A model generated the notes under the pieces. That model saw only the letters and a program-made list of their open reading frames with translations. It was not told the origin of the DNA and did no database searches. Of a stretch of DNA of 64,000 bases, positions 2,300-64,000 are shown piece by piece (the stretch's first letter is position 1; each line of letters opens with the position of its first letter). This DNA is from Bacteroidota bacterium (GTDB lineage Bacteria > Bacteroidota > Bacteroidia > Bacteroidales > VadinHA17): NCBI GenBank assembly GCA_022561875.1, contig JADFQJ010000007.1, positions 3,482 through 67,481 of the forward strand, written 5' to 3'. A program made the translations under genes and the position numbers.

Positions 2300-2442
2300 T
2301 GCGGTGTTGAAGAGTTTATAAGTTTAGGAATTTATTAGTTTATGTGTTGCAGTGTTGCTGTTACGTGTTACGGGTTGATGCTTGTTTCTCCTCCATTCGC
2401 CTCTTAGTTCTCTCACTCATTCTCTCTGTTACACTGTTTGCT

Positions 2443-2477
2443 CCTTACTCCTTACTTCTTACTTCTTGCTTCTTCTC
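2443..2477. repeat. 5 x 7-nt tandem array (CCTTACT/TCTTACT; reverse of GTAAGAA) abutting the lolA-like stop codon
   Basis: Read directly: ccttact ccttact tcttact tcttgct tcttctc, then the stop anticodon triplet tca at 2478-2480. Confidence 0.9.
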
Positions 2478-3152
2478 TCACCTCATATCAATAACTTCTA
2501 CATCCGGATGTTTTGCAGGATCGAACCGGAAGTAAGAATCTTCTAATACAATATCATGTTCAAACCGGGTGATGTCGATGATGTAGTGTATACCATCTTT
2601 ACCCATGTAGGTAACTGATTGCAGTAATAAATCATTCTTACTTATAAGAAGCTTTATAGATGAGTATTCTGAGTTCAGGTTCTTTGGAAAAAGATCAATA
2701 TAATATTGAATTCCATTTTTATTGTTCTGCTCATCAACTAATTTATACTTAAAATCTTCTTTATACATTGTAAAAAGGCCGGCAGGATTTGTAAGGAATG
2801 AACTGCCGATGTCAACGTCTTCTGCAGAATTGATATTTACTTCCTGTGCATCAGGAATATAGTTCCATACTGTCGTTTTGTCATAATAGGTAATATTATC
2901 CATTAATTCAAGTTTGAACATACCTTCTTTCAATGCAATATTACCATCAAATACCTCTTTTGTATCCTGTTGCAGATCAATAACAGTAAGTTGAAATGAT
3001 GCTTTTATAGTTTGAAATGATCTGTTCTTTTCAGCAAACTTGTCAAGTATGGCGCCGGCCTGTGGATCCTGCTGAGCATTTGATGATGCGAACAGAAATA
3101 TTGCAATAAGGGCTGTGAATAAAAATTTCATACGGTTTATTCTAAAAGACAT
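2478..3152 (-). CDS. lolA: LolA-like outer-membrane lipoprotein carrier protein
   Basis: 224-aa ORF with signal peptide MKFLFTALIAIFLFASSNAQ (ATG at 3131 is the likelier start). LolA-like N-terminal pattern. Lies directly downstream of ftsK, as is common in Bacteroidota. Confidence 0.7.
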   Translation of the reverse strand: MSFRINRMKFLFTALIAIFLFASSNAQQDPQAGAILDKFAEKNRSFQTIKASFQLTVIDLQQDTKEVFDGNIALKEGMFKLELMDNITYYDKTTVWNYIPDAQEVNINSAEDVDIGSSFLTNPAGLFTMYKEDFKYKLVDEQNNKNGIQYYIDLFPKNLNSEYSSIKLLISKNDLLLQSVTYMGKDGIHYIIDITRFEHDIVLEDSYFRFDPAKHPDVEVIDMR

Positions 3153-3222
3153 TTCGAACAGATTCTTCAGTAAAAAAAACTTTATTTCTCTTCTTATCGC
3201 CCCATCGCTCCATCGCTATATA

Positions 3223-5586
3223 TTACTGTTCAATATTCTTCAAAAACTGTTCCAATGTATATTCATCCGGGATAAGAACTTGTCTTGCCTTACTGCCCTC
3301 ATAAGGTCCGACGATTCTGGCGTTTTCAAGCTGGTCAATTATCCGTCCGGCGCGGTTATAACCAATAGAAAGTTTTCGCTGGATTAATGAGGTGGATCCT
3401 TGTTGGTGCAGAACAACCAGTTTTGCAGCCTCCTCAAAATAGGAATCTCTTTTTGTCAGGTCTGCTTCACCTGGTTCGCCTGTACGTTCATCTATATATT
3501 CAGGGAGGATCAATGCAGTGGGATATCCTTTCTGAGAGCTGATATATTCCGTCACCTTATCAATTTCAGATGTATCCAGATAAGCACATTGGATCCTTAT
3601 CAAATCGCTTCCTGCGGAAAGCAGCATATCTCCACGGCCTATGAGTTGATTGGCTCCGGTACTGTCAAGAATTGTCCTCGAATCAATCATTGATGAAACC
3701 CGGAATGCAATCCTTGCCGGGAAATTAGCTTTAATTACACCTGTAATAATATTGGTTGTAGGACGCTGAGTTGCAATAACCAGGTGTATTCCAATTGCCC
3801 GTCCCATTTGAGCCAGACGTGCCAGTGGGTTTTCTATCTCTTTGCCAGCAGTCATGATAAGGTCGGCAAATTCGTCAATTATCAGAATAAGATAGGGCAG
3901 GTAGCGATGACCTTTTTCCGGGTTAAGTTTTCTGTTTTTGAACTTTCCGTTATATTCCCTGATATTACGTACATGTGCAAGCTTAAGTAAGTCGTACCTT
4001 TGATCCATTTCTAAAGTCAGGGAATTAAGGGTATTAATAACTTTGTGAGTATTTGTTATAATTGGTTCTTCATCATTAGGAAGTTTTGCAAGAAAATGTT
4101 TTTCAATCTTCGAGTATAAAGTCAGTTCAACTTTTTTCGGGTCGATCATTATAAATTTGATCTCAGAAGGATGCTTTTTGTAAAGTAAAGAAGCAATAAT
4201 AACATTCAATCCGACTGATTTTCCCTGACCTGTCGCTCCTGCTATCAACAGGTGAGGCATTCTGGTAAGATCAAAAATATATGGTTCGTTCGAAATAGTT
4301 TTACCAAGAGCTACACCCAGCTCAAATTCCGATTCCCTGAATTTTTTTGAATTGAGCATAGATTTCATCGAAACGATCTCCGGATTCAGATTGGGTACTT
4401 CGATGCCAATGGTTCCTCTTCCCGGGATTGGAGCTATTATCCTGATGCCCAGGGCTGAAAGACTGAGGGCTATATCATCGTCAAGATTTCTGATTTTGGA
4501 TATGCGGATACCAGGAGCAGGAACAATCTCATATAGAGTCACTGTCGGACCGATTGTAGCTTTAATCTTGTCAATCTCGATATTATAGTTTCCCAGGGTT
4601 TCAACAATTTTATTCTTGTTGCTGATAAGTTCATCTTTAGTAACACGAGAATTCCTTGATTCGTAATCTTCAAGCAAGTCGGTACCGGGAATTCTATATG
4701 ATGGAAGATCAAGCGCAGGGTCATATGGCTGAGAGTCTATTTCTCCCAACCACTCATTTTCTGAGGATTTACGTTGTTCAACTGTCAATTCAATATCATC
4801 GGTTGTTCGTTCTGTCTTCTTTTCATTTTCATGCTGATCTTTATGCAGCTCTTTTGTCTGAAATTTGGTCATTTCATCATCATCTTTCCCAATATTGAAT
4901 CCGGAGAGAGGCTTTTCAACAGAATTGCCGCTCTCTAATTCATCCGGAGAGTACATAGCTTCAGTATTCTCATCAGATATTTTTTTCTTACTCCCGAAAA
5001 TATGTATAATGCCGCTGAATGAAAAAACAAAAAAAGCTGTAAGCAGAATTAATAATAAAAAGGCAGTTCCGGCTTTACCAAGAAATGCATTAAGCCAGTT
5101 GCTTATCAGGAATCCGTGCCCGCCTCCTAATCCGCTGCCAAGATAACCCCCTGAGTCACCAAACAGGTAAGAGAGGATAACCGAAAGAAGAATAATTGCA
5201 ATAAGTCCCGTTTTAACAGTTTTCCAAAGAGGGAGGATTTTTAGATTCAGCATCCTTAATCCCATAATAAAAAGTAAAAAGGGAATAAAAAAGGAAGTTA
5301 TACCAAACCATTTGTTAATAAGGAGATTTGAGAAGTATGCTCCTGTTTTACCCGACCAGTTCAACACCCGGATTTCAGAGCTTGAAAATGCTGACGACCA
5401 TTCAAAGCTCTGGTCGGTTTTCCAGGTAAAGAGGAATGAAATAAAAGCAAGGAGAAGGAAAAGTGCAAAGCCAATTAGAAACAAGCCGGATAGCAGTTTT
5501 ACCCTGTTGTCTTTGAAAATCCTTAACCTGGTTTTATTTGATTTTGTTATATCCTTTTTTCTTGAATCTTTATTTCGTTTCACCAT
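3223..5586 (-). CDS. ftsK: DNA translocase FtsK/SpoIIIE
   Basis: 787 aa. N-terminal multi-TM region, acidic linker, motor domain with Walker A GATGQGKS and IIDEFADL, C-terminal gamma winged-helix (LIQRKLSIGYNRAGRIIDQLE). Confidence 0.95.
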   Translation of the reverse strand: MVKRNKDSRKKDITKSNKTRLRIFKDNRVKLLSGLFLIGFALFLLLAFISFLFTWKTDQSFEWSSAFSSSEIRVLNWSGKTGAYFSNLLINKWFGITSFFIPFLLFIMGLRMLNLKILPLWKTVKTGLIAIILLSVILSYLFGDSGGYLGSGLGGGHGFLISNWLNAFLGKAGTAFLLLILLTAFFVFSFSGIIHIFGSKKKISDENTEAMYSPDELESGNSVEKPLSGFNIGKDDDEMTKFQTKELHKDQHENEKKTERTTDDIELTVEQRKSSENEWLGEIDSQPYDPALDLPSYRIPGTDLLEDYESRNSRVTKDELISNKNKIVETLGNYNIEIDKIKATIGPTVTLYEIVPAPGIRISKIRNLDDDIALSLSALGIRIIAPIPGRGTIGIEVPNLNPEIVSMKSMLNSKKFRESEFELGVALGKTISNEPYIFDLTRMPHLLIAGATGQGKSVGLNVIIASLLYKKHPSEIKFIMIDPKKVELTLYSKIEKHFLAKLPNDEEPIITNTHKVINTLNSLTLEMDQRYDLLKLAHVRNIREYNGKFKNRKLNPEKGHRYLPYLILIIDEFADLIMTAGKEIENPLARLAQMGRAIGIHLVIATQRPTTNIITGVIKANFPARIAFRVSSMIDSRTILDSTGANQLIGRGDMLLSAGSDLIRIQCAYLDTSEIDKVTEYISSQKGYPTALILPEYIDERTGEPGEADLTKRDSYFEEAAKLVVLHQQGSTSLIQRKLSIGYNRAGRIIDQLENARIVGPYEGSKARQVLIPDEYTLEQFLKNIEQ

Positions 5587-6404: not shown

Positions 6405-6463
6405 TTTTTACAAATGGCAATATACAAATTTATTTAAGGATTAGTTCCTTCAGTTAAAAAATA

Positions 6464-6498
6464 GTGAAACGTGAAATGTGAATCGTGAGTCGTGAATC
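6464..6498. repeat. 5 x 7-nt tandem array GTGAAAC/GTGAAAT/GTGAATC/GTGAGTC/GTGAATC
   Basis: Read directly. Same 7-mer core as the arms of the GTGAAAT hairpin elements. Confidence 0.9.
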
Positions 6499-6606
6499 GA
6501 GCCTGTATCCAGTATCCCGTAATCCGTAACTGCAACACTGCAACACCGCATCACAACTCTTCTGTATAAACAGCAACAATTATGGCGTTGAATTACAAAA
6601 AAATGG

Positions 6607-6614: not shown

Positions 6615-6642
6615 TATTTCTATGGTAATGGAGTTTAAATAG

Positions 6643-7605: not shown

Positions 7606-7865
7606 AGAAGAGTTGAGTGGTTGAGTAAGTTGAGTGGGTGAGTAGGAAGAGAAAAGGTGAAGAGGGGAAAAGGAGAAAAAAAGATTAATGAATATCGATT
7701 AACGAATTATGAATTTTGAAGCGTTAGGTGTTAAGCGTTACGAGTTTACGGGTTTGAGTTACGGGTTATGGGTTATACTTTGTCCTCAGTAACCAGTGCC
7801 CAGTAACCAGCTGCAATCTCTTAATTCTAAACTCATAAACTTATTAAACTTATAAACAAAAAAGA

Positions 7866-9510: not shown

Positions 9511-9548
9511 AATACTGGAATACTGGAATATTGGAATAAGGATGAATA
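9511..9548. repeat. 8-nt tandem array AATACTGG/AATATTGG (about 4.5 units)
   Basis: Read directly: aatactgg aatactgg aatattgg aataagg atgaatag. Confidence 0.85.
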
Positions 9549-9695
9549 GTCATTATCATTCCATTTAATACCTGATTATCAGTTTAACTATGCCCAGTAA
9601 AGGATTTTATAGCATTTCCATTTCAATTATCAGTACTGAAAAATCAATCAATCGTTCTTCCAAATCAAATTTATTCATTTCTTTCTTTACTTCTA

Positions 9696-9881
9696 CTAAT
9701 TATTGGATATGCGTTTGTATGTAGACAAAATATCTCTTTTGGCAGAACAGGCTGTGCATGTATTGCAACAACCGGGATTGGCTTGATTTCCCTTATTTGG
9801 CAGGAACAATTTAATTGTATGAAAAAGGATATATACAATAGATAATCCGATTGCCAGGTATGTTATTATTTCTTGTATCAT
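9696..9881 (-). CDS. FeoB-associated Cys-rich small membrane protein
   Basis: 61 aa. One N-terminal TM helix followed by the CCNTCTAC cysteine cluster. Located downstream of feoB on the same strand. Confidence 0.65.
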   Translation of the reverse strand: MIQEIITYLAIGLSIVYILFHTIKLFLPNKGNQANPGCCNTCTACSAKRDILSTYKRISNN

Positions 9882-9885
9882 GCTT

Positions 9886-9918
9886 AAAATTAAAAATTAA
9901 AAATTAAAAATTAAAAAG
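9886..9918. repeat. about 4.5 x 7-nt tandem array AAAATTA just upstream of the small Feo-associated gene start
   Basis: Read directly: aaaatta x4 then aaaagtt. Confidence 0.9.
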
Positions 9919-10033
9919 TTGCTTAACTCGTAATACGTAACACGTAACTCTTTTACTCTTTATACTGCATCACTGCAACACAATTTCTTCACTCTTCCCA
10001 TTCTTCCATCATTCCAATATTCCATTATTCCTC

Positions 10034-12602: not shown

Positions 12603-12894
12603 ACTATTAATAATGTTTCTAAACAATACCTTTTTAGAGGAAAGAGCAAAGAACGAAGAGCAGAGAGCTAAAGAAGTATGAAGGATGAAGAAAAAAGAAG
12701 GCTGAAGAACTTATAACTATTTAATTTATAGCCATTTGGAACGATGAAAGTAAAATATTGAGTCCACTACGAATATAAAGGAAGCCACGAATGCACGAAT
12801 ATCAATATTGAAAGAGTCAAATACATATTATAACCAAGTTATATATAATAACTTATCACCCCCGGGATATCGACTTTGTTTGTTTTGATATGAG

Positions 12895-13553: not shown

Positions 13554-14513
13554 ATGATTAGCAGAAGGTTGTTGAGAATTAAGGTATTGCAGGTATTATA
13601 TGCTCATTATAAATCAGAAGGAAAATCAATTAATCATTCGGAAAAAGATTTATTTTTCAGTATTGAAAAGACGTATGACCTGTATCACTTATTGCAGCTG
13701 TTAATCATTGACGTCAAGGATGTTGCCAATGAAAAGATTGAACTGGCAAAACTTAAGCAGGTGCCTACCCATGACGATTTGCATCCAAATACCCGTTTCA
13801 TTGAAAATAAGTTGATCCTGCAATTCCAGGAGAATTACCGTTTACATAAATATATTCGTAGCAAAAAACTTTCATGGGGAAACTATCCGGAACTGGTTAA
13901 GAATTTGTTAAGGAAGTTACAAGAATCTAAAGAATATAAAATCTATATGAAAGTGGAAGATAATGATTATGAGGCCGATAAGAAAATAATTATTGATTTC
14001 ATTACCTTCCATATGGTCGATTATGATGATTTTCTACAGGCAATCGAGGAACAAAGTATTTTCTGGAATGATGATGTTGAATTTATTGCCAGCATGTTGA
14101 TTAAGACCATAAAGAAATACAAACCATATCATAATTTCAATGGACCGGTATTTAGATTGTTCAAGAGTGATGAGGATATGAAATTCGTGAAGCATCTGCT
14201 TCGTAAGAGTATTCTTAAAGAAAAAGATTATCGCGGGCTGATTGAAAAATATACAGTTAACTGGGACATTGAAAGAATCGCTTATATGGATATTCTTGTA
14301 ATGCAACTTGCAATATCTGAGTTGATAGAGTTCCCTGAAATTCCTGTTAAAGTAAGTCTGAATGAATATCTTGAGATTGCAAAATTTTACTGTACAGACA
14401 GAAGCAGTAAATTCATAAATGGGATACTCGATAAAATCGTACATGATCTGAGGCGTAGTAAAATAATTGTCAAACGAGGTAAGGGCTTGATTGGTGAAGA
14501 TTCCATTAATTGA
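13554..14513 (+). CDS. nusB: transcription antitermination factor NusB (long Bacteroidota form)
   Basis: 319 aa. N-terminal RRLLRIKVLQVLYA, C-terminal NusB core (ERIAYMDILVMQLAISEL...INGILD). Conserved nusB-yajC-ybbR-coaE order. Confidence 0.85.
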   Translation: MISRRLLRIKVLQVLYAHYKSEGKSINHSEKDLFFSIEKTYDLYHLLQLLIIDVKDVANEKIELAKLKQVPTHDDLHPNTRFIENKLILQFQENYRLHKYIRSKKLSWGNYPELVKNLLRKLQESKEYKIYMKVEDNDYEADKKIIIDFITFHMVDYDDFLQAIEEQSIFWNDDVEFIASMLIKTIKKYKPYHNFNGPVFRLFKSDEDMKFVKHLLRKSILKEKDYRGLIEKYTVNWDIERIAYMDILVMQLAISELIEFPEIPVKVSLNEYLEIAKFYCTDRSSKFINGILDKIVHDLRRSKIIVKRGKGLIGEDSIN

Positions 14514-16625: not shown

Positions 16626-16750
16626 TGGTTCATCCGGAAAATGAATAGGTGTCAGATGGAAAAATGGAATAATGGAAAGAAAAAACATTAACAGAGGGTT
16701 TAAACAATTAAGAGTTAGAATCTGTCTATAAACTATTACAACATTGAATT

Positions 16751-17473
16751 ATGGGAAAATTTAGTAAATGGATAGCGGGCGGACTTGGATGGGCGTTTTT
16801 TGGACCTATTGGCGGATTGCTTGGCTTTGCAATCGGGTCGATGATGGATAACCGGTCACAGCAAGCAATGTCAGGTCTGCAGCAAAAAACTACAACAGGA
16901 GCTTATGCTATGAGTCTTCTTGTACTGGTTGCTGCCGTGATGAGGGCTGACGGGAAGGTAGTGCGCGCCGAACTTGATTACGTTAAACAATACTTTGTAA
17001 AGGCTTTTGGATCGGATGCTGCAAGGGAAGCTATCAGAATGCTTGGCGATTTGCTTAAACAGAATATACCACTCAGAGATGTTTCTTTGCAGATAAAACA
17101 AAATCTGGATTACTCCTCACGCCTGCAACTCCTTCATCTTTTATTTGGTATTTCAGCAGCTGATAGTAAAGTGGATCCTGACGAAATTAGGGTAATAGAA
17201 CAGATTGCTTCGTACCTGGGGCTTTCAAAAAAGGATACCGATTCAATTAAGTATATGTTCATAGAGAAAACCGATTCAGTATATAAAATCCTTGAAATTA
17301 ACCCGGATGCAAATGACGAAGATGTGAAAAAGGCTTACCGTAATATGGCGAATAAGTACCATCCTGATAAGGTGAGTCATCTGGGAGAGGATTTTCAGAA
17401 GATTGCTAACGAGAAATTCCAGAAAGTGAACGATGCATACAGGCAAATAAAGAAAGAGAGAAAAATTGCCTGA
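16751..17473 (+). CDS. TerB-like domain plus C-terminal J-domain co-chaperone (DjlA-like)
   Basis: 240 aa. N-terminal hydrophobic segment, TerB-like middle, J domain YKILEINPDANDEDVKKAYRNMANKYHPDK. Confidence 0.8.
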   Translation: MGKFSKWIAGGLGWAFFGPIGGLLGFAIGSMMDNRSQQAMSGLQQKTTTGAYAMSLLVLVAAVMRADGKVVRAELDYVKQYFVKAFGSDAAREAIRMLGDLLKQNIPLRDVSLQIKQNLDYSSRLQLLHLLFGISAADSKVDPDEIRVIEQIASYLGLSKKDTDSIKYMFIEKTDSVYKILEINPDANDEDVKKAYRNMANKYHPDKVSHLGEDFQKIANEKFQKVNDAYRQIKKERKIA

Positions 17474-17604
17474 TTACAGGTGATTAAGGTGAGTTGGTGA
17501 GTGATTTGAGTAAAGTGAGTTGTCTGGAAAGAGAGCCTAAAGATATTAAAGATGGATAAAACTTTTTTTACTTTTGCTTTTTATTTTAAAAACTTAACTC
17601 AATT

Positions 17605-18096: not shown

Positions 18097-18225
18097 TAAC
18101 CACTTTCTCATTCCGGCTCTGCCAGGAACGCCTTCGGCTCACTCTGGCAGGTCTTAACCGATTGTATGACCATTGTTTGACTGTTGTATGACCATTTGTA
18201 TGACTACCGTATGACTACCTAATGC

Positions 18226-18310
18226 CCCCAGTGAAATATGCTCCTTCCCCCGGTGAAATATTTTCGTACCTCAAATTTCACAGTGCAAGCGTCGCATTTC
18301 ACGGGGTAAA
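18226..18310. repeat. GTGAAAT-arm structured repeat element, nested/compound copy
   Basis: ccccaGTGAAATATGCtccttcccccgGTGAAATAttttcgtacctcaAATTTCACagtgcaagcgtcGCATTTCACggggtaaa. Outer and inner inverted repeats were read directly. Confidence 0.85.
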
Positions 18311-20000: not shown

Positions 20001-20966
20001 TTGATGAGCGAAAAGATTTTATATTTAGAGGATATCGATCCTGTAAACATTTACGGATCCAATAATAGTTTGTTGAATAAAATCATAGGTTCCTTTCCCA
20101 AACTGAAAATAATTGCAAGAGGTAGCGAAATTAAAGTTATTGGTGAGGAATCACTTATTGCTGAATTTGAGGAAAAATTTGAGAGACTTATTGAATTTTA
20201 CCTTAAATATAACAGATTGGAGGAGGCTGATATAGATACATTGTTTTTTGATTCTGCTATGCAGGTACATATAAAAAACGGAGATCTTGATGAAGTATTG
20301 ATATTTGGTAACAGAGGTCAGCCAATAAAGGCAAGGACGGTTAACCAGATAAAACTGGTGAAGGAGTTTTTCCTGAACGATCTGGTAATAGTAATCGGAC
20401 CTGCCGGTACGGGAAAGACTTATCTGGCAATAGCTATGGCTGTCAGGGCGTTACGAAACAAGGAGGTTGAAAAGATAATTCTCACCCGGCCTGCTGTTGA
20501 AGCTGGCGAGCATCTTGGATTTCTTCCGGGAGATGTTATGGAAAAACTGGAACCATATCTTCAGCCCCTGTATGATGCCCTGAAGGATATGATAACTGCA
20601 AAAAAACTGGCTGCCTATATCGATAATGAGATTATTCAAATAGCCCCCCTTGCGTATATGCGTGGAAGGACACTTGAAAATGCTGTTGTTATTTTAGATG
20701 AGGCTCAGAACTCTACGGTAAACCAGTTGAAAATGTTTCTGACAAGGATGGGACAATCGTCAAAATTTATAGTTACAGGTGATATTACGCAGATTGATCT
20801 TCCCGGAAAATCTGATTCAGGTCTGTGGCAGGCAGTAAATCTTCTCAAAGGAATAGATGGTATTTCAATTCTGGAGTTTGATGAACATGATATTGTACGT
20901 CACAAGTTGGTAAAGTCTATTGTGAGAGCTTATGATGAGAAAGAAAGGCAAAAAGGGAACCAGTAA
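20001..20966 (+). CDS. phoH: PhoH-like ATPase
   Basis: 321 aa (TTG at 20001; ATG at 20004 is likelier). Walker A GPAGTGKTYLA, ILDEAQN, GDITQIDLP. Confidence 0.92.
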   Translation: MMSEKILYLEDIDPVNIYGSNNSLLNKIIGSFPKLKIIARGSEIKVIGEESLIAEFEEKFERLIEFYLKYNRLEEADIDTLFFDSAMQVHIKNGDLDEVLIFGNRGQPIKARTVNQIKLVKEFFLNDLVIVIGPAGTGKTYLAIAMAVRALRNKEVEKIILTRPAVEAGEHLGFLPGDVMEKLEPYLQPLYDALKDMITAKKLAAYIDNEIIQIAPLAYMRGRTLENAVVILDEAQNSTVNQLKMFLTRMGQSSKFIVTGDITQIDLPGKSDSGLWQAVNLLKGIDGISILEFDEHDIVRHKLVKSIVRAYDEKERQKGNQ

Positions 20967-21027
20967 CCAGTAACCAGTAACCAGTAACAAGTAACCAGTA
21001 ACCAGTAACCAGTAACAAGTAATCAGT
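20958..21027. repeat. 10 x 7-nt tandem array AACCAGT (variants AACAAGT, AATCAGT); the phoH stop codon lies in unit 1
   Basis: Read directly. Units 1-4 aaccagt, 5 aacaagt, 6-8 aaccagt, 9 aacaagt, 10 aatcagt. Confidence 0.95.
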
Positions 21028-21073
21028 AAAAGCAAACTTATAAACTCATAAATCACAAAACTTATAACATATT

Positions 21074-22021: not shown

Positions 22022-22035
22022 AGTATAAGATTATA

Positions 22036-22140
22036 AGCCGGAAGCCGGAAGCCGGAAGTAAGAAGTAAGAAGTAAGAAGTAAGAAGTAAGAAGTAAGAAG
22101 TAAGAAGTAAGAAGTAAGAAGTAGGAAGAAAGAAGTAAGG
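22036..22140. repeat. 15-unit 7-nt tandem array: GGAAGCC x3 then GTAAGAA x9 then 3 degenerate units
   Basis: Read directly. Perfect GTAAGAA units start at 22058 and continue every 7 nt to 22114. Confidence 0.95.
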
Positions 22141-22190
22141 GGCTGAGGTTAAGCCAATTGTGATTCAACCAGTAACCAGCATCGTATTAC

Positions 22191-22260
22191 CACAGTGAAA
22201 TATGCTCCTTCCTCGCATTTCACCACAATGAAATAAAAAGAATTTCATGGGGTAAACGTG
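22191..22260. repeat. GTGAAAT-arm structured repeat element, tandem two-hairpin copy
   Basis: caCAGTGAAATATGCtccttcctcGCATTTCACcacaATGAAATaaaaagaATTTCATggggtaaac. Confidence 0.85.
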
Positions 22261-23680: not shown

Positions 23681-25627
23681 TTACCTGAATTCCAGAATTC
23701 CGGGAGCATTTACATCGAAATCTCTCGGGTCAAATAATCTTTCTCCTGAGATGTGAATAAATTGTTTCGAGAAATCAACCGGCAGCCTTGGATAGAAAGC
23801 CAGGCGGATCTGAAAGGTTTTAAAAACAAGTCTCTCATTTCTGATTCTTAGTCCTACTCCAATAGCTGAATAGAGATCGTTTCTGAAAATATTATACTTG
23901 TTGGACCCGATAAATCCAAAGTCTGTGAAGCCATAGAAAGCAAACCGGAATCCATAAGCATAGAAGGGAGAGAATGCAACGGTTTCAAGACTCATTGTCA
24001 GACGGTGAGTCCCACTGAGACTGTCGCTGCTTAGGCCGCGTATTCCATTTTTATTAGAGATATTGATCTGCTCATCTTCAAACCGCCTGATACCTATTGT
24101 ATAATCGAGAACAATAAATTGTCTGATATGATAGTTTCGAAAAGGAAAGAGGTTTGTAAAATAACTTGACTTGAGATGAAATAATCCCTGCCTGTATTGA
24201 TGTCCTGACAAAAACCCTGCAAATCCAATGGTTGTATGTAAATAGCCCAGTTTCTCGTAATAATTTCCGTGTGAGAATGTTACTCCGGTGTAATAACGAT
24301 TATAGAATTCATTGTCTTCATATCCTCCGGTAAACTCAAGCAGCATACCGTATGGAATATCCTCAGTAGTTCCGTAATTATAGATCAGGCTTGACTTGTA
24401 ATATTTTTGTCTGGAAAATGCAATACTACCCAGGTACAATTGGAAATTGTGAAGATCATAATAAGAATCTTCATCAATTTCCGGCCTTTCATAAATATTA
24501 TTGAATAGAAATCTTCCTGAGACGATCAAGCGTGACCTTGAAGCGTAATTAAGCATGAATGATCTGCCCAGCCAGTAATCCTGGTAGTTGTATATGAAGG
24601 GGGTAGGGCCGGGTAAAGTATCAAGATCCTCATAGGTAGATGTGTTCGTAATATTAATACCTCCTGCATACTTAGTATATGGTGTGAAGAATTTTCTTGA
24701 CAGGTTTATCCCAATTGATTCAGTATTGAAGGCATTTTTGTAATTTAGAATACCTTTAATAAAGCTACCCCTGATATTATCGATCTTGTACACTCCCTCA
24801 TATCCCCTGCTTGGAACTGTATCGTAGTTAAAAAACAATTTAGCTTTCATTTCATGACCGATACCAATGATATTCTTGTCGAATATCTCCAGTTTTCCGG
24901 AATTGATGTCGTAAAATTGCAGATCCAGCCCAAGTGAAAATTTGTCTTTTGTGATCACCAGAACATCAACAATTTCATCCGATACCGGAATAAGTATTAT
25001 CCTGGCATCTTCAATATACGGAAGGTTCCTGATAATTCTTTCATTATCAGCCAGAACATATGGATTAACTTCGTCTCCTCTTTCAATTATCAGGTTATTT
25101 CGTATATACCTTTCCCTGGTTTTGATATGTATTTTGTTCAGGGTTCTGCTAATCCATGCTGTATCAATAATGGATGTATCACGAATCACCGGACCAAAAA
25201 CGTCAAGTTCGAGTATTCTGACATTGCGAATGATTTTTCCTTCATGTTTAACAAACTCCTGCTCACTTTTACTGGTTTTCTCATCATAAATGCCTGCAGG
25301 TGCACTGGTGAACAGCCAGTTATATAATTCACGTGTCCATTCATACTTACCGGCCTTTATTCTTAATGAATCATAAAAACTTCTTGAACGTTTAAGTTTT
25401 GAGGAATCGATCGGAGAGAGTATCTGCTGTTCTAAAAACCTTATGGAGTCTCCGGGAATGTATATAATACTGTCACCGACAAGGAAATATTCTCCCTTGC
25501 GGATTAAAACACTATCCCTGTTGTTATCGGGTTCCTGTCCTGTAACCAAAGAAGTTAGCGCTATAAACACTATTGTTATGAAAACAAATTTATAAATAAC
25601 AATAATATGAGACAGGATTTTTGTCAA
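23681..25627 (-). CDS. putative outer-membrane Omp85/BamA-like beta-barrel protein
   Basis: 648 aa. N-terminal signal/anchor, POTRA-like segment (YIEDARIILIPVSDEIVDVLVITKDK), long alternating aromatic beta-strand pattern to the C-terminus. Confidence 0.5.
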   Translation of the reverse strand: MTKILSHIIVIYKFVFITIVFIALTSLVTGQEPDNNRDSVLIRKGEYFLVGDSIIYIPGDSIRFLEQQILSPIDSSKLKRSRSFYDSLRIKAGKYEWTRELYNWLFTSAPAGIYDEKTSKSEQEFVKHEGKIIRNVRILELDVFGPVIRDTSIIDTAWISRTLNKIHIKTRERYIRNNLIIERGDEVNPYVLADNERIIRNLPYIEDARIILIPVSDEIVDVLVITKDKFSLGLDLQFYDINSGKLEIFDKNIIGIGHEMKAKLFFNYDTVPSRGYEGVYKIDNIRGSFIKGILNYKNAFNTESIGINLSRKFFTPYTKYAGGINITNTSTYEDLDTLPGPTPFIYNYQDYWLGRSFMLNYASRSRLIVSGRFLFNNIYERPEIDEDSYYDLHNFQLYLGSIAFSRQKYYKSSLIYNYGTTEDIPYGMLLEFTGGYEDNEFYNRYYTGVTFSHGNYYEKLGYLHTTIGFAGFLSGHQYRQGLFHLKSSYFTNLFPFRNYHIRQFIVLDYTIGIRRFEDEQINISNKNGIRGLSSDSLSGTHRLTMSLETVAFSPFYAYGFRFAFYGFTDFGFIGSNKYNIFRNDLYSAIGVGLRIRNERLVFKTFQIRLAFYPRLPVDFSKQFIHISGERLFDPRDFDVNAPGILEFR

Positions 25628-27157: not shown

Positions 27158-27501
27158 TGATAACAAAAACTAAAATTGAGAAACGGACCCTGTTTCTCAT
27201 GATAAAGATTTACTGCAACTATCATCACCATACAAAAGATATATGTGATGATTGTTCCAGTCTTTGTAATTATGCTGTTCTTAGGGCTGATAAATGCCCA
27301 TTCGGGACCAGAAAACCTGTTTGCGCAGCATGCACGATACATTGTTATAATCTTGAAATGAGAGAACGGATCAGGAAAGTTATGAGGTTCTCAGGACCTA
27401 GGATGATTTTCAGGCATCCTGTTTTTGCATTGATCCATCTGTATAGGGAAATAACTGATAAAAAGCATAAAAATCTGAAAGTTTTGCGATACGGCAAATA
27501 A
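27148..27501 (+). CDS. nitrous-oxide-stimulated-promoter family protein (YgbA-like, Cys-rich)
   Basis: About 115 aa (ATG at 27154 likely). Motifs YCNYHHH, CDDCSSLCNYA, KCPFG..KPVCAACTIHCY, RKVMRFSGPRM. Confidence 0.75.
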   Translation: MGMMITKTKIEKRTLFLMIKIYCNYHHHTKDICDDCSSLCNYAVLRADKCPFGTRKPVCAACTIHCYNLEMRERIRKVMRFSGPRMIFRHPVFALIHLYREITDKKHKNLKVLRYGK

Positions 27502-27783
27502 CTATTTTCATGTTTTCCACACTTTTTCAGCAGTCTGGCCGCTTACTGTAAATTAATAATTATTCTTTTTTATGCGATTTTACTTTTAACTTTAACCAAC
27601 TTTTGCTTTTGTCAGACAATAAATGTTTTTGTCTTGCAGTTTTATGCGTAGTCTAAAATTTAATCACGGCATTAGTTACATGATTATTTTTATGAACTTT
27701 GAATAGCCTTGCCGGAACACCGCATTACTGCAACACTGCAACATCGCAACACAATTCCTAAACCACAACTCTTAACCCGTAAC

Positions 27784-27825
27784 CACAGTGAAATATGCTC
27801 CTTCGTCGCATTTCACGTGGCAAGC
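27784..27825. repeat. GTGAAAT-arm structured repeat element, simple copy
   Basis: caCAGTGAAATATGCtccttcgtcGCATTTCACgtggcaagc. Confidence 0.85.
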
Positions 27826-27914
27826 CCGAAACTCTAAACCCGTAATAATTCATCTTCTCCATGAGATTCCCTATCTTACATCAAATTCTCAATAATCAGA
27901 AAAACAATACGTGA

Positions 27915-29351
27915 ATGACTATATCAGGATCAGGCAAAGTTATACCCCACTTGAATTTGCTCACACGTGAACAGAAAGGGGAGATTCATGAGCATTCAAT
28001 AAAAATTCTTTTTTCAACGGGTATCAGGGTGGATTCTCATGAAGCAAGAAAGATTTTCAGGAAAACAGGAACTGCAACTGAAAAGAATGACAGAATTTTT
28101 CTGTCGCGGGAACTGGTTGATTGGGCGATAAAGACAGCTCCTTCTGATTTCACAATATATAACAGATCAGGGAAAGTTGCTTTCGATATAGGTGCGCATC
28201 ATCTTGATAAAACCCGTTTTGGGATTGGAGTAACAAACACTCATTACCAGGAGCCAGGACCCGGTAAAGTCATTAAATTTCTGCGAAAACATATGGAGGT
28301 TTCAACCCGTTTGGGTGATGCTTTACCAAATTTTGACATTATTTCAACTATCGGTATTCCTTCAGATGTTTCCCCGGAATCATCTGATTTATTTGGGGTT
28401 CTGGATATGTATGCTAATACGGAAAAACCTCTTATTATTCTTGTATTGAAAGATAATACAATTTTAAAGGTATTTGATCTCCTGGAACACCTTCACGGAA
28501 ATATTTCCGGTAAACCATTTGTATTGGCTTACGTAAACCCTGTTACTCCCTTAATTATTAACGATAGTACGGTTGAAAAAATGATCGCAACTGTACAAAG
28601 AGGTTTGCCGGTGATTTATTCAAATTATAGTATGTACGGGGCAACAACTCCTTTTTCTTCGGCTGGTACAATAGCATTATTAAATGCTGAATTGCTGGCT
28701 GGACTTGTTTTGAGTCAGCTGATAAAAGAAGGAACCCTTGTTATGCTTGGAAGCCTTCCCGCAGGATTTGAAATGACCACTATGAGCAGTACCTATACTC
28801 CGCAATCATTTCTCATGAATCTTGCATGTGCTGAAATGATGGAATATTATAGTATTCCACACTGTGGCACATCAGGCAGTGGTAATGGCTGGGGACCTGA
28901 CCTGCTTGCAGGCAACGCACTTTGGATGAATCATCTAACCAGTTGCATAGGAAATGTTGGTTTGGCTCCATTTGTTGGAGGTAATTTTGATTCACGTACC
29001 TTTTCACCAACAACAGTAGTTTATGCAGACACAATAATTAAGATGGCAAAGAATTTTGCAAGCGGCTTTTTGCTGGATGAGAAATCAGCAGCACTGGAGG
29101 AGATAAATTCTGTTGGCCCCGGAGGAGATTTTCTAATATCTGAAAGTACTATTAAAAATTACAGAAAAGAGATAGAGAATAATCCGGTGTGGCCTGCTAC
29201 AACCCTCGAAAAGTGGCTTAAAAGCGGTAACCCGAGGGCTATTGATTTATTGGAAGAGCATACACTGGAATTGATAGAGAATTTGAAAACTCCTCCTGAT
29301 TACAACGAGTTAATCAGCCAGGGGGAGGAATTTATTAATAAATTGAGCTAA
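27915..29351 (+). CDS. trimethylamine methyltransferase (MttB) superfamily protein, non-pyrrolysine type
   Basis: 478-aa uninterrupted ORF collinear with MttB/MtgB-type TIM-barrel methyltransferases. No in-frame TAG at the position of the MttB pyrrolysine. Confidence 0.8.
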   Translation: MTISGSGKVIPHLNLLTREQKGEIHEHSIKILFSTGIRVDSHEARKIFRKTGTATEKNDRIFLSRELVDWAIKTAPSDFTIYNRSGKVAFDIGAHHLDKTRFGIGVTNTHYQEPGPGKVIKFLRKHMEVSTRLGDALPNFDIISTIGIPSDVSPESSDLFGVLDMYANTEKPLIILVLKDNTILKVFDLLEHLHGNISGKPFVLAYVNPVTPLIINDSTVEKMIATVQRGLPVIYSNYSMYGATTPFSSAGTIALLNAELLAGLVLSQLIKEGTLVMLGSLPAGFEMTTMSSTYTPQSFLMNLACAEMMEYYSIPHCGTSGSGNGWGPDLLAGNALWMNHLTSCIGNVGLAPFVGGNFDSRTFSPTTVVYADTIIKMAKNFASGFLLDEKSAALEEINSVGPGGDFLISESTIKNYRKEIENNPVWPATTLEKWLKSGNPRAIDLLEEHTLELIENLKTPPDYNELISQGEEFINKLS

Positions 29352-29569
29352 AATGAACTAAATTGACTAAAATGAGCTAAGATGAAAAAGAAATGATATA
29401 ACAAATTCATTATTATTTCTTTACGTTGACTTTATGGAAGATGAAGTCTGTATCTTAAGCACTACATTTTTTAACATTTAAGTTTCTCCGATAGAGTTCT
29501 TCGAACGAATATTTTTTAACCGGGCTTGCGAACTCAACGAAGTCAAATTCCGATATATAATATTTAGGC

Positions 29570-30910: not shown

Positions 30911-31066
30911 TCTGTACCAAGCAACCGGTAACCAGTAACCATTTGGAACGATGGACGATGATTGTTGAAGGATGAAGAAAAATATAAAAAGCTTAATTCA
31001 TAACTTTTAACCTGCAACCAGCATCCAGTAACTTTGTTATTAATGCATTATTCTCAGCTCTTTTTG

Positions 31067-37426: not shown

Positions 37427-37583
37427 TGATTACTGGTTACTTGATACTTGTTACTGGTTACTGGTTTGCCACATTTCACAGTGGTCACTAGTCTTTGAAC
37501 CTTGAACTTTTCATTCTTCTTTACTCAACTACTCACCTTACTCACCTACTTACCTCTCTTCTCCTCTTTTGCCTTGACACTAG

Positions 37584-38330: not shown

Positions 38331-38819
38331 AATGGTTATTGTTAATTAGTTATGATTATTTTTCTTGCATCGATCATGTTTTAAAAGTAAACGGGCATTT
38401 GTACAGAAGAATAATGGAACAGTCGAAGAATGGAATAATCTGGCTATATCATCATTCCATTATTCCAACATTCCTTTATGTACTTTATTAACTAATCAAA
38501 AATAGTATCACTGCAACACTGCCCATACTCTCCAGGACATGAATCAGTTTTTTGTATTTTTCTGTATGTGCCATTTACTTCATTACCTCATTATTAATTT
38601 TCATAGCAACACTGGTTACTGGCTTGCCCAGTGAAACGCGACGATAGGAGCTGTTTCACCGGGGTTGCTGGGTGCAGGTTTTTAACTTCAAACATTTTTC
38701 AAGCCTCAAAGACAAGGCATGCCTTGTCTCTTCAAGCATTTTCACACTTGAAACTAATTCTCACTTACTTCTTCCTACTCACCTTACTCAACCACTTAAC
38801 TTACTCAACTACTTACCTC

Positions 38820-38859
38820 CCTTTTGCCTTCTGCCTTCTGCCTTTTGCCTTCTGTCTTC
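38820..38859. repeat. about 5.7 x 7-nt tandem array CCTTTTG/CCTTCTG abutting the larC stop codon
   Basis: Read directly. The array ends at the nucleotide before the larC stop triplet (38860-38862). Confidence 0.9.
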
Positions 38860-44110: not shown

Positions 44111-44379
44111 ATATCATAATTTTTATCTGGCAAATGTAATATTTAACCTGAAGAATTCATAACTTTTAGAATACAGAACAGAGACAAATAGTTTGGGAGT
44201 TTATAAGTTTATGAGTTTAGGAGTTAAAAAATTGTGATGCAGTGTTGCAGTGAAGAAGGCTGTTATTAAGTAGTAGTCATTACCTTCAAGCATCAAGTTT
44301 AATCCTTCAAAGAGGTCTAAGGTTTCCAGTTGAAGGTTATTTTCATCCTTCAACAATCATCCTTCATCCTTCAGAAGGG

Positions 44380-48492: not shown

Positions 48493-48540
48493 ATACTCTG
48501 CTTTTTTGCTTTTGCTGAAACAGTTTGCAAAGGTAATATA

Positions 48541-48609
48541 AAATGACCAAAATGACTAAAATTGTAAATGACTAAAATGACTAAAATGACTAAAATTATA
48601 AATGACTCA
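48541..48609. repeat. 9-nt-period array AAATGACTA (about 7 units, imperfect)
   Basis: Read directly. A related word set occurs at 29345-29400. Confidence 0.85.
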
Positions 48610-49007
48610 GTTTTAACCGGATTTTAAAGGGTGCAAAAGGATTTTGCGAGCGCACCCTGACCAGAGTATCATGGGGAGTGAAGCGACTCTTGCCCTCCGT
48701 AACACAGTGAAGGTGGGACGCAAACTCCCAAAAACAATCAGAATGCCAATATAAAATGGACTGTCATGAGCTTTACGAAAAGCCATTAAAGATTACTTCA
48801 CTTCATTCGCAATATTTCGTGTACTTATTATGCTTTAACCAGTAACCAGTAATTTCACTAAATTGCTTGTGATCCCTGATTTTATAAGTAAAAGACTGTC
48901 AGAGTATTATGATGTATTACCAAAGGGCTCAGATAAAAAAGTTATAATACATACAGATTGGCATCAAATTTGAATTTTAATAAACAGAACCCATTAAATC
49001 AAGAGTT

Positions 49008-58750: not shown

Positions 58751-58764
58751 GTTTTTTTGAATAT

Positions 58765-58806
58765 AACCAGTAACCAGTAACTTGTACCCGAAACCCGAAA
58801 CCCGTA
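58765..58806. repeat. 6 x 7-nt phased units (AACCAGT x2, AACTTGT, ACCCGAA x2, ACCCGTA) running exactly up to the ATG at 58807
   Basis: Read directly. Occupies 42 of the 56 bp between two divergent start codons. Confidence 0.9.
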
Positions 58807-61137: not shown

Positions 61138-62319
61138 TTATAGATTATCTGAGTACAATGCCCGTGGCAGATCCCGAAGGTTGTACCGTGATGCCATTGT
61201 TTCTCCATAAGCTCCTGCAGAACGGATACAAAGCAAATCGTTTCTGTTGGTTTCAGGTAGTAAGATATATTTACCAAAAGTATCTGACGATTCGCAGATT
61301 GGTCCGACAATGGTATAATATTCCTGCTTTCCGGTTGATGTAAAATTTTCTATTTTGTGATATGCCTGGTAAAGTGCAGGCCGGATGAGATCAGTCATAC
61401 CCGCATCTACAATAGCAAACTTGGTGTTTATTCCTTTCTTTATATATAATACTTTGGTTATCAGGCTTCCACATTGTGCAACCAGGGAACGCCCTAATTC
61501 AAAATGCACCTTTTGTCCGGGACCAATATCGAGAAACCTGTTGAATAATTTGAAATAATTTGGGAAATCACTAACCGGATGATTATCCGGATCGTTATAA
61601 TCTACTCCAAACCCTCCGCCAACATTTATATGGTTAACTATTATCTGATGGTTATGGAACCATTCCTGTATTTGGTTCACACGTATGCATAATCGTTTAA
61701 ATGTATTCAGATCGGTAATCTGAGAGCCAATATGAAAGTGCAGCCCTACAAATTTGAGATTAGGACAAAGTGCTAACGTATCCATTATTATTTCTAATTC
61801 CCCCGGGTGGATACCGAATTTATTTTCTTCCACTCCTGTTGTTATATATTCATGTGCTCCTGCCCGGAAATTCGGATTGATCCGTAGAGCAATATTTACT
61901 GTTTTGCCTGCTTTCCCGGCAAGTGAATTAATTACTTTTATTTCGGCAATAGATTCACAATTAAAGCAAAATATGTTTGTTTCCATTGCTAATTCAATCT
62001 CCCAGTCAGTTTTTCCAACACCCGCGTAAACAATTCCTTCAGGATCAAACCCTATTTCAATTACTTTTTTTATCTCATTACCACTAACACAATCGGCATC
62101 AATTCCATGGTGCCTGATAATCTTTAATATCCGGTCGTTTGCATTGGCTTTTACCGCGTAATGGATAATAAAATTATATTTATCAGCTTCTTTTTTTGCT
62201 GTTGCCAGAGTATGATTCAACAGATCAAGATCATAATAATAAAAAGGAGTCCTTTCTTTTTGTATAGGTTCAGGTATTTTGAATTTTGCTATGCTGTCCA
62301 TTTTATTTTGTAATTTCAA
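61138..62319 (-). CDS. lysA: diaminopimelate decarboxylase
   Basis: 393 aa (start may be Met at 62301). PLP lysine motif YAVKAN, HIGSQ, GGGFG, ESSD. Confidence 0.9.
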   Translation of the reverse strand: MKLQNKMDSIAKFKIPEPIQKERTPFYYYDLDLLNHTLATAKKEADKYNFIIHYAVKANANDRILKIIRHHGIDADCVSGNEIKKVIEIGFDPEGIVYAGVGKTDWEIELAMETNIFCFNCESIAEIKVINSLAGKAGKTVNIALRINPNFRAGAHEYITTGVEENKFGIHPGELEIIMDTLALCPNLKFVGLHFHIGSQITDLNTFKRLCIRVNQIQEWFHNHQIIVNHINVGGGFGVDYNDPDNHPVSDFPNYFKLFNRFLDIGPGQKVHFELGRSLVAQCGSLITKVLYIKKGINTKFAIVDAGMTDLIRPALYQAYHKIENFTSTGKQEYYTIVGPICESSDTFGKYILLPETNRNDLLCIRSAGAYGETMASRYNLRDLPRALYSDNL

Positions 62320-63625: not shown

Positions 63626-63649
63626 TTTTCAGGTTAATAGATTAGTAAG

Positions 63650-63676
63650 AAAAAAAAGCCTGCAGAAATTGCAGGC
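63650..63676 (-). terminator. terminator-like hairpin inside the lysC leader (candidate attenuator)
   Basis: Minus strand GCCTGCA atttc TGCAGGC followed by TTTTTTTT, ending about 25 nt upstream of the lysC ATG. Confidence 0.6.
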
Positions 63677-63939
63677 CCGGATACAAATTTTTGCCTTTTT
63701 TCTGTTGCTTCTGTCAGAAAATAATACGTTTCATCATAAATTTATAATTATGTCTGAAATACAATGCCATCTGTATAAGATTTCGATTTAGCTGGTAAAA
63801 ATATAAAAAAGATCATATAATTAATTAAAGAAATTTAATATTTTTGTATCCCATAAAAGAAAGTATGAATTATGAGTGATGAATGATGAAAAAAGAGATG
63901 CTTGAAATTTCTTTAAAACTTCATACATAATCCTTCAAC

Positions 63940-64000
63940 CACAGTGAAATATGCTCCTTCCCCAGTGAAATACTTTCGTACCTCAAATTTCACGGGGCAA
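63940..64000. repeat. GTGAAAT-arm structured repeat element, copy truncated by the window end
   Basis: caCAGTGAAATATGCtccttccccaGTGAAATActttcgtacctcaAATTTCACggggcaa. The inner hairpin is nearly identical to that of the 18226 copy. Confidence 0.8.

Follow-up and report, generated by a model that had tools for sequence, protein, structure and literature searches.

Dispersed mosaic modules of short tandem arrays and small hairpins in the intergenic spacers of a Bacteroidales genome

What are the short-period repeats that fill so many spacers between ordinary housekeeping genes in an uncultured Bacteroidales genome, and how did the same words come to stand in spacers far apart? The question is raised by a 64-kb stretch of the Bacteroidota contig JADFQJ010000007.1 (the window, by which the whole stretch is meant; GC ~38%, coding ~87%), about half of whose spacers had been seen, in a preliminary description, as built from one shared vocabulary of words. 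The finding is genuine and statistically strong, and it concerns a described kind of bacterial repeat. With a probability of about 0.6, the words belong to lineage-specific, dispersed mosaic intergenic repeat modules, ~50-400 nt long, whose arrays grow and shrink by slippage.

Arrays and shared words in the spacers

Genes were called from open reading frames (ORFs) with a cut-off of 100 aa, leaving 43 spacers, several of which contain small genes (rpmI, the infC start and a 61-aa ORF at 9696-9881). Tandem Repeats Finder detects arrays in almost all of the spacers first listed; the 42 intergenic arrays take up 14.1% of intergenic bases, as compared with 0.84% of coding bases for arrays in genes. 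The unit is 7 or 8 nt long in 30 of the 42, with up to 12 copies per array; period 7, at first thought dominant, is present (n=17) but about equalled by period 8 (n=13). Arrays of these two periods occur in 17 of the 43 spacers and cover 1111 nt, far above the mean of 1.19 spacers (maximum 5) and 22.6 nt (maximum 101) in dinucleotide shuffles (n=100); the share first given as "about half" is real and amounts to 17-21 of 43. Array density per 100 kb is 29.7 (period 7) and 20.3 (period 8) in the window vs 5.3 and 4.4 in other Bacteroidales loci.

The words themselves are non-coding, as had been claimed, and 4-60 times denser in spacers than in genes, except that GAGTGG alone shows no enrichment. 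AACCAGT occurs 19 times in nine spacers, CTGCAACA eight times in six, and CTTATAAAC is found in five. The 12-mers common to at least two spacers number 170, again far more than in the shuffles (31.8 +/- 7.4). Words lie at or near the sites first given for them, some of which are off by 5-20 nt, and the spacers that had been named as word-free do lack them.

The spacers are indeed concatenations of a shared vocabulary, used independently of strand, and a mosaic description of the BIME/BOX kind fits them. Mutation links the units into families: AACCAGT, AACAAGT, AACCCGT, AACACGT and AACACTGC form one, AAGAAGT, AAGGAGT, AAGCCGG and GAGTAAG another, and AAACTTAT and AAACTCAT a third. Word order is partly conserved, as proposed: purine words, AACCAGT/AACCCGT words, CTGCAACA words and AAACTYAT words follow one another in at least six spacers, in either orientation. 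Arrays with exact-consensus units recur within this window alone, AACCAGT in five spacers and AAGAAGT and AAACTTAT in two each; the units common to other genomes are few, of low complexity and A-rich.

Distant spacers also share imperfect strings and non-periodic junctions, among them strings of 20, 15 and 18 nt and others of 31-37 nt that are 89-95% identical. The 15-mer CCATTTGGAACGATG stands unchanged at 12732 and 30939, and the 20-mer GATGATTGTTGAAGGATGAA at 30957 and, reversed, at 44342, both as reported; the 17-mer GAGTTTATAAGTTTAGG, said to be repeated, is exact at 2312 only, its counterpart at 44195 being similar, not identical. AACAAGT variants stand in the same order at 20972 and 37430, a 36-mer is 89% identical at 37521 and 38784, and the spacer at 2300..2477 contains a 31-nt 90% match to 6516-6546 and another 31-nt match to the 22055 array. 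Judged from these sequences, pieces of modules must have been copied between spacers, because the shared imperfect strings, the junctions and the module order go beyond what independent slippage would suffice to produce.

Arrays of the window typically start 0-13 nt past the upstream stop codon (2313, 2444, 3196, 7611, 9998, 17471, 20958, 22035, 29339, 30923, 38820, 44342), and the 70-190 nt ahead of the next start codon are array-free. The array-bearing spacers are composed as follows.

2300..2477 (-), convergent spacer: an (AAGAAGT/AAGGAGT) array, AACCCGT/AACACGT words, CTGCAACA words and AAACTTAT-type words, in minus-strand order.
3196..3217 (-): (ATCGCTCC) x2.8, 5 nt past the ftsK-like gene's stop codon; other assemblies have 3-4 units more.
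6459..6556 (+), divergent spacer: GTGAAWC words, CCGTAAY words and (ACTGCAAC) x3.
7606..7865 (+), between genes on the same strand, filled from stop to start: GAGTTGAGTGG, AAGCGTT and TTACGGG arrays, AACCAGT words and a TAAACTYA array.
9511..10031: inverted GGAATAWT arrays at both ends (9511-9538, 9998-10031); in the interior (AAAATTA) x4.6 at 9886-9917, ACGTAAC words at 9924-9948 and CTGCAAC words near 9965-9985.
12636..12750: (AGAGCAA) x5.4, a GAAGGATGAAG word and the shared 15-mer.
16656..16685 (+): (ATGGAAWA) x3 words, 30 nt past the coaE stop; at the orthologous site the sister species has different, GGAATAATGG-type words.
17471..17530 (+): TGATTACAGG / GGTGAGT-type words from the djlA stop codon onward.
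18161..18310 (+): a period-11 array (18161-18219), then hairpin A split by nested hairpin B; the hairpin composite has a 94% identical counterpart at 63942-63993.
20958..21052 (+), phoH-purC junction: (AACCAGT) x10, then AAACTTATAAACTCATAAA words.
22035..22257 (+), purC/tilS, convergent: (AAGCCGG) x3.4, (GAAGTAA) x12, AACCAGT words at 22166-22179, and hairpins A and E.
27712..27850 (+): (CYGCAACA) x5, CCGTAAC words, hairpin A at 27783-27825 and further CCGTAA-type words.
29339..29385 (+): a period-10 array of (TAAAATGAGC) over the MTTB-family gene's stop codon; its words belong to one family with those at 48539-48607.
30923..30985 (+), from 12 nt past the permease stop: AACCAGT words, the shared 15-mer and GATGATTGTTGAAGGATGAAG.
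37430..37583 (-), AIRC-family (purE-like)/wbqC: a 154-nt module of GGTGAGTAAG words, a hairpin remnant and (AACCAGT) x5; its parts follow the order of the module in the next spacer, of which it is a shorter paralogue.
38331..38859 (-), 529 nt: (CAGAAGG) x5.7 directly past the stop, then GAGTAAG words (minus-strand order); further parts are a divergent copy of hairpin A at 38622-38663, AACCAGT words, CTGCAACA words and GGAATAATGG arrays in inverted orientation.
44190..44373 (-): (GAAGGAT) x4.6 six nt past the dapB stop, CTGCAACA words and an AAACTYAT array.
48539..48852 (+): (TAAAATGAC) x8 at 48539-48607, a hairpin-like remnant near 48700 and (TAACCAG) x2.4 at 48836-48852.
58764..58804 (+): (TAACCAG) x2.6 and (ACCCGAA) x2.7, nearly all of the 56-nt divergent spacer 58751-58806.
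63865..63999 (+): (ATGAATG) x3.7 and hairpin A with nested hairpin B, the element being interrupted by the end of the window.

Those genes of the window that were examined have housekeeping roles: ftsK, argB-like, OTCase, feoB, nusB, yajC, coaE, phoH, purC, tilS, proS, thrS-infC-rpmI-rplT, dapB and others. The window contains no tRNA or tmRNA genes and has no Rfam hit at gathering score. Between the permease gene and the Fer2/RACo-family gene, the two arrays leave no obvious space in the spacer at 58751-58806 for two promoters; start codons or promoters may lie elsewhere. The 61-aa ORF at 9696-9881 (-), beside feoB and between the inverted GGAATAWT arrays, has a hydrophobic N-terminus and a Cys-rich motif (GCCNTCTAC); a reading of it as a FeoB-associated Cys-rich protein finds no support in Pfam, where it has no hit. 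Another ORF, 414 aa long at 33927-35171 (+), combines a lipoprotein-like signal peptide with a low-complexity body extremely rich in Tyr, Ser, Arg and Gly and likewise has no Pfam hit; by tblastn its residues 1-367 match conspecific contigs, where only small ORFs are called in the source collection.

Differences between strains and species

A scan with PurC, one genome per species, returned Bacteroidales-type records only. The nearest relative is the metagenome-assembled genome (MAG) L007, a sister species (PurC 86% identical, gene DNA ~80-87% identical), followed by Prolixibacteraceae, Marinilabiliaceae and Marinifilaceae at ~72-76%. Among the Pfam families of the window are DUF3276, DUF5606/DUF6852 and an archaeal-type ProRS C-terminal domain, families known mainly from Bacteroidota; this gene content and the nearest genomes led to the rejection of a cyanobacterial origin, which the heptamers had suggested at first. 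Conspecific contigs, 98-99.9% identical to the window, were built from at least four further samples with three assemblers (MEGAHIT, SPAdes and Logan) and reproduce the arrays; Logan (k=31) and perhaps SPAdes contigs can collapse perfect arrays, whereas the MEGAHIT k141 contigs (L001, L093) are safe.

Over the ~64 kb compared, every indel of at least 7 nt between the window and conspecific contigs falls in a spacer. Eight of the differences, at six arrays and in contigs some of which come from short-k assemblies, are gains or losses of whole units.

AACCAGT array, 20990: two units fewer in L001.
AAGCCGG array, 22034: one unit more in L001.
GAAGTAA array, 22055: two units fewer in L002.
GAAGTAA array, 22055: six units fewer in L003.
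ATCGCTCC array, 3204: three units more (+24 nt) in L092.
ATCGCTCC array, 3209: four units more (+32 nt) in L093 and L094.
AAAATTA array, 9886: one unit fewer (-7 nt) in L095, a Logan contig, hence weak.
AAAGATA array, 33804: one unit more in L088.

Larger blocks are present or absent as wholes. The 154 nt at 37430-37583 are missing in L090 and L091, where the AIRC-family (purE-like)/wbqC junction is 3 nt long (TAA-TCA-ATG), and 399 nt (38460-38858) together with 21 nt (38375-38395) are missing in L088. The 154-nt and 399-nt indels are not graph artefacts, because no long k-mer is common across their boundaries. An "85-nt deletion" in L087 (window 37433-37517) proved to be a scaffold run of N and was discarded. 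The scaffold gap of L087 at the 37433-37517 arrays and the end of L089 at window 37432 are breaks exactly in repeat modules, which break short-read assemblies of this species. The low-coverage SPAdes contig L002 differs from the window in tight G>T and C>A clusters at the equivalents of 14006-14155, 25547-25555 and 27285-27374, where the gene calls split nusB in two and miss one neighbouring gene; these clusters look like sequencing or assembly errors, not real variation.

Orthologous spacers, the comparison of which had been proposed as a check, are short in the sister species at word-bearing sites, and the word-free spacers keep their length.

phoH/purC spacer: window 107 nt, L007 13 nt.
purC/tilS spacer: window 263 nt, L007 7 nt.
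DUF5606/mazG spacer: window 214 nt, L007 39 nt.
permease/proS spacer: window 156 nt, L007 40 nt.
Word-free spacers, window/L007 (nt): 189/189, 84/86, 86/85, 55/55; visibly conserved in much of their sequence too.

Adjacency of phoH and purC is found in 67 of 80 Bacteroidales loci, with gaps that, as read from the list, are mostly below ~50 nt; the short spacer is therefore ancestral and the state in the window an expansion. Here the AACCAGT array supplies the last codons of phoH and its TAA stop (20952-20966), and PhoH ends in …ERQKGNQ before the stop, as compared with …KEKKKS in L007. In L064, L079, L055, L046 and L047 the same spacer is expanded with different short-period arrays of their own. 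Arrays are present, too, in several loci of Marinilabiliales type. The modules are extra DNA that differs among strains and species, and the arrays change by whole units.

Hairpin mini-elements within the arrays

The preliminary description did not include the hairpins embedded in the arrays, the period-8 component or the recent strain-variable insertion of modules. Five spacers carry ~45-nt hairpins of the form GTGAAAT...ATTTCAC; the pattern GTGAAA-N6-36-TTTCAC has six matches in the window, five of them intergenic, vs 0.29 expected. The consensus reads CCX-CAGTGAAAT...ATTTCAC-GYGG-CARGC and hairpin A in full CCX-CAGTGAAATATGCTCCTTCGTCGCATTTCAC-GYGG-CARGC, with CGTC within the loop and no terminal GTAG. 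Neither hairpins nor arrays of the segment 18100-28000 match Rfam even at E <= 5. The copies, located with nhmmer, are these.

27783-27825 and 22190-22223: hairpin type A.
18226-18247 and 18290-18310: hairpin type A, split by nested type B at 18248-18290.
63939-63960: hairpin type A, with type B at 63960-63999.
38622-38663 (-): divergent hairpin type A, its stem kept by a T>C / A>G double change.
22221-22257: hairpin type E, abutting A.

Metagenomes scanned for a 19-mer taken from hairpin A gave more than 120 stretches, ~45 of which are an unrelated coding match in human-gut contigs; the same hairpin element stands at no fewer than 75 metagenome loci, several of them from other Bacteroidales. 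Among the matches listed, and by our own count, the core outside the search word is identical in 30 of 37 non-redundant simple copies, and the outer stem is CCC...GGGG in 16 copies, CCA...GTGG in 14 and mismatched in two, a paired change that points to conservation of the stem. Tblastn against Bacteroidales loci placed 14 hairpin-bearing contigs, whose proteins are 50-75% identical to those of the reference loci, so the core, being near-identical, is far better conserved than the host proteins; L124 matches multiple genes of the window lineage. A Pfam scan of the hairpin-bearing contigs was uninformative on taxonomy.

Hairpin copies sit between heptamer units, with the same word on both sides (e.g., ACCCAGT, AACCAGG, AACCGAA, AACGAAC, ATAACGT); L180 uses the word of the window, AACCAGT. 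Nesting of one hairpin in another is also seen (B inside A; types C, D and E), and direct tandems of hairpin plus one heptamer unit occur in L122, L158 and L205. Among the matches listed, an array of 6-8-nt units lies between -60 and +140 nt of the hairpin in 56 of 86 copies, vs 16.5% of random positions, and per 100 kb the hairpin-bearing contigs contain 32.6 period-7 and 17.0 period-8 arrays, figures partly inflated by contig selection. The syntax of ACC-type words followed by AAACTNN words recurs in other genomes (L106, L206, L211). A 7-nt target duplication around hairpin A was considered: over the 10 nt on either side the within-copy match is 7.66/10 vs 5.26/10 between copies, which insertion into an existing array explains equally well. 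The hairpins would form a second layer of small elements, set between ACC-type array units and nesting inside one another.

L007 has no hairpin elements at the spacers orthologous to those of the window. In its feoB/DUF3276 spacer (L007 2093-2150) a truncated hairpin A (…ATGCTCCTTCGTCGCATTTCACAGGGGAAAC) follows a GAGAAGAT array, which implies that the hairpin family predates the split of the two species or entered both lineages. L116 and L211, considered as a filled/empty pair, are ~99% identical until 18 nt into hairpin A, after which they have nothing in common; hairpin A is there either a rearrangement breakpoint or an assembly-graph branch, not an empty site. A phage vehicle was considered and rejected, since IMG/VR viral contigs gave no match to the 19-mer. 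Another dispersed repeat, GTAGAGCCGAATTGTATTCGGCTGG, in which a GTAG tag precedes a hairpin in REP-like fashion, occurs 20 times in hairpin-bearing metagenome contigs (L106, L108, L117, L122, L124, L131, L144, L153, L163, L169, L172, L184, L194, L197, L216), often adjoining arrays or hairpin A (e.g., just upstream of 10157 in L117); it is absent from the window.

Origin, relatives and meaning of the modules

How such modules arise can be cast in four steps. Whole modules, to judge by the outcome, are copied into new spacers in either orientation, preferably 0-13 nt downstream of a stop codon, into convergent spacers and at same-strand gene junctions; candidates for the copying process are trans-mobilisation of a non-autonomous element, possibly built around the hairpin mini-elements, and template switching or ectopic conversion between arrays. 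Within modules the 7- and 8-nt arrays gain and lose whole units, the signature of replication slippage. Point mutation of units, followed by further slippage, would raise new arrays beside old ones, which would explain the mutationally connected word families. Finally, as the distribution suggests, selection would remove copies that disturb promoters, and length-conserved spacers would for that reason stay word-free. The most likely status of the system as a whole is that of selfish or near-neutral DNA, not of a new regulatory code, and its effects on the length of untranslated regions and on spacer geometry are most likely side effects.

Several observations weigh against this reading. No mobilising enzyme, transposase or reverse transcriptase is present among the window genes examined. 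The 154-nt and 399-nt modules, whose ends were compared, have no terminal inverted repeats, so that classical transposition is no more than a candidate; the TAA/TTA flanking the 154-nt insert is either a 3-nt duplication or an alignment ambiguity, and nothing clear in the way of a target-site duplication is seen at the 399-nt insert. Part of the unit-count differences stem from short-k assemblies (Logan, possibly SPAdes), in which collapse is possible. Whether a site gained or lost DNA we infer at most sites, the polarity being best supported at phoH/purC, and the observed part of the genome is 64 kb. Position and orientation, counted over the window and 75 metagenome loci, show weak biases that leave room for a role at the RNA level: 46 arrays lie nearer the stop and 31 nearer the start, 46 vs 29 have A>T on the sense strand, and hairpin A is sense in 25 cases and antisense in 12.

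An RNA-level role would mean that the arrays are functional cis-elements in mRNA. Apart from the mild hairpin orientation bias, this would fit arrays that often start 0-13 nt past a stop codon, the purine- or A-rich sense strand to which window arrays tend, a hairpin core that stays near-identical across lineages with proteins 50-75% identical, and the roles of this sort proposed for related repeats (PMC4679880, PMC3733652). A dedicated regulatory role is nevertheless unlikely, because strains whose flanking proteins are identical may have or lack a module, module orientation is free and other lineages use other words at the same site, the phoH-purC spacer being expanded there with entirely different ones; modules are also absent in the sister species, copy number differs among strains, the strand biases are weak, and words occur in both orientations and in convergent, divergent and same-strand spacers alike, beside unrelated housekeeping genes. 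Somewhat less probable still is the birth of each array in place by slippage, the shared vocabulary then reflecting mutational or compositional bias and no copying. Unit-number polymorphism does indicate active slippage, words do differ among lineages at the same spacer, and heptamers are the favoured long simple sequence repeat (SSR) unit in many bacteria (Mrazek 2007, as relayed in PMC4679880). Bias of this kind, however, would hardly place identical imperfect multi-unit strings and non-periodic junctions in distant spacers, conserve module order, or yield 170 shared 12-mers where shuffles give ~32, and the all-or-none 154-nt and 399-nt indels include non-repetitive segments and hairpin remnants.

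Contingency loci, in which array length would switch neighbouring genes by phase variation, would account for strain-dependent length and for arrays just upstream of starts at 37430-37466, 58786-58804 and 7828-7857. Such switching is very improbable here: the neighbours are housekeeping genes (purC, tilS, proS, feoB, dapB, phoH) rather than genes for surface or restriction functions, the place of most arrays is past a stop or in a convergent spacer, the 7-8-nt units fall outside reading frames, and ~40-50% of all spacers are involved. An origin of the arrays in assembly or scaffolding, which the preliminary description had named as a possible undoing of its claim, is hardly credible at all. 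L087 has its run of N precisely where the 37433-37517 arrays lie, the ends of some contigs, such as L089, fall in arrays and short-k assemblers may miscount units, but contigs of at least four further samples, built with MEGAHIT, SPAdes and Logan, contain the same arrays, words and hairpins, every array is below typical read length, and related arrays exist in many other genomes and metagenomes.

No repeat family could at first be named for these elements; intergenic heptanucleotide arrays are, however, a described class, comprising short tandemly repeated repetitive (STRR) sequences, long SSR, the heptamers of Xanthomonas and Nostoc and assemblages in Bacteroidetes. The STRR units of the heterocystous cyanobacteria Calothrix, Anabaena and Nostoc are CCCCAGT, TTGGTCA and CAACAGT. 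Mazel and colleagues are said to have described these cyanobacterial heptamers in 1990. Long SSR have 5-11-nt units (Mrazek et al. 2007, as cited in PMC4679880 and PMC4692102), and the known heptamer repeats of Xanthomonas and Nostoc likewise lie near the end of the upstream ORF (Rehm et al., PMC4692102). The window has tandem 5-11-nt units, an intergenic excess, unit reuse and unit-number polymorphism, as this class does; it shares with STRR and long SSR the head-to-tail 7-nt intergenic arrays, the few units reused at many loci, the abutting of different arrays, strain-variable length, slippage as proposed driver and the position near the upstream ORF end. It differs in its host, a Bacteroidales species and not a cyanobacterium or proteobacterium, in 8-nt units nearly as common as 7-nt ones and in a partly fixed word order. 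None of CCCCAGT, TTGGTCA, CAACAGT, GGGAATC, GGGGATT and TAACTGA is tandem in the window (TAACTGA has 14 single occurrences there and no tandem dimer), and STRR in the strict sense are rejected on this ground and on the Bacteroidales gene content and nearest genomes.

Several different heptamers in single spacers were reported for Gramella forsetii, Aequorivita sublithincola, Elizabethkingia anophelis and Flexibacter litoralis (MacGregor 2015; PMC4679880), where only TAACTGA was tracked, mostly just upstream of start codons and at few loci per genome. These assemblages resemble the modules in phylum, in mixed heptamers per spacer, in shorter repeat-free spacers of relatives and in contig breaks (PMC4679880). 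The modules differ from them in occupying ~40-50% of spacers, in using other words and in embedding hairpins.

The hairpins recall the small dispersed repeats (SDR) of Nostoc punctiforme, compared here by their description, in being very small and near-identical, nested in one another and in heptamer arrays, devoid of inverted ends and of any protein, and absent from the orthologous spacers of L007. SDR, as Elhai and colleagues reportedly found in 2008, are very small hairpins of 21-27 nt, nested and lying within tandem heptamers. Their copies are said to be near-identical, absent at the orthologous sites of relatives, and devoid of terminal inverted repeats and of any protein. The hairpins of the window belong to another phylum, measure ~45 nt, as against 21-27 nt, and seem, set apart by description, to differ in sequence.

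The BIME and REP sequences of enterobacteria include REPs tagged with GTAG/CGTC and mobilised by RAYT transposases (PMC3116915, PMC3733652). Like them, the modules are a mosaic of palindromic unit and short linkers, mostly downstream of genes and uneven among strains; hairpins A, B and E are imperfect 20-40-nt palindromes in many copies, in five spacers, and modules in recurring order stand at many intergenic sites, in at least six spacers. The mosaic interior is microsatellite-like here, hairpin A has CGTC only in its loop and no terminal GTAG/CGTC tag, the copies are single, nested or in direct tandem and not the inverted doublets of REPINs (PMC3733652), and no RAYT gene was seen among the window genes examined. 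BrickBuilt of Porphyromonas gingivalis is a MITE (miniature inverted-repeat transposable element) with a minisatellite of a single 23-nt unit, with leader and tail subunits and with ends formed by small inverted repeats (PMC4596501). It too has a Bacteroidales host and is a strictly intergenic composite in multiple copies, with a tandem-repeat interior of variable unit number; the modules have many 7-8-nt units, and the two with known boundaries lack inverted ends. A MITE reading was rejected, since neither the 154-nt nor the 399-nt module has ends that form inverted repeats.

What is new here is the host group, the density of ~40-50% of spacers, the mix of 7- and 8-nt units with an order of modules that recurs, and the association with a family of nested hairpins, highly conserved and present in several Bacteroidales lineages. 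A more far-reaching proposal, tentative and on balance doubtful, is that the hairpins with their flanking ACC-type arrays, and frequent AAACTNN arrays, are one undescribed family of protein-less mobile mini-elements, perhaps generating heptamer arrays. Such a family would spread among Bacteroidales with a near-identical core, inserting between heptamer units and having neither inverted ends nor GTAG. In its strongest version the element would make arrays as 7-nt target duplications or as insertion/excision footprints, which slippage would then amplify.

Intergenic repeats of Bacteroidales are little described, the literature found being the BrickBuilt paper and passing notes in PMC4679880. The modules extend to this order the pairing, in cyanobacterial style, of heptamer arrays and nested mini-hairpins, and they are exceptionally clean natural material for the birth and copying of arrays, offering filled and empty sites in near-identical strains, an empty sister species and dozens of array-embedded hairpins. 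In practice they cause assembly breaks, inflated spacer lengths and rewritten gene ends, as where the phoH stop comes from an array, and they could serve as strain-typing markers. If it is true that the element generates arrays, it would give a mechanistic origin for the "why seven" of bacterial heptamer repeats.

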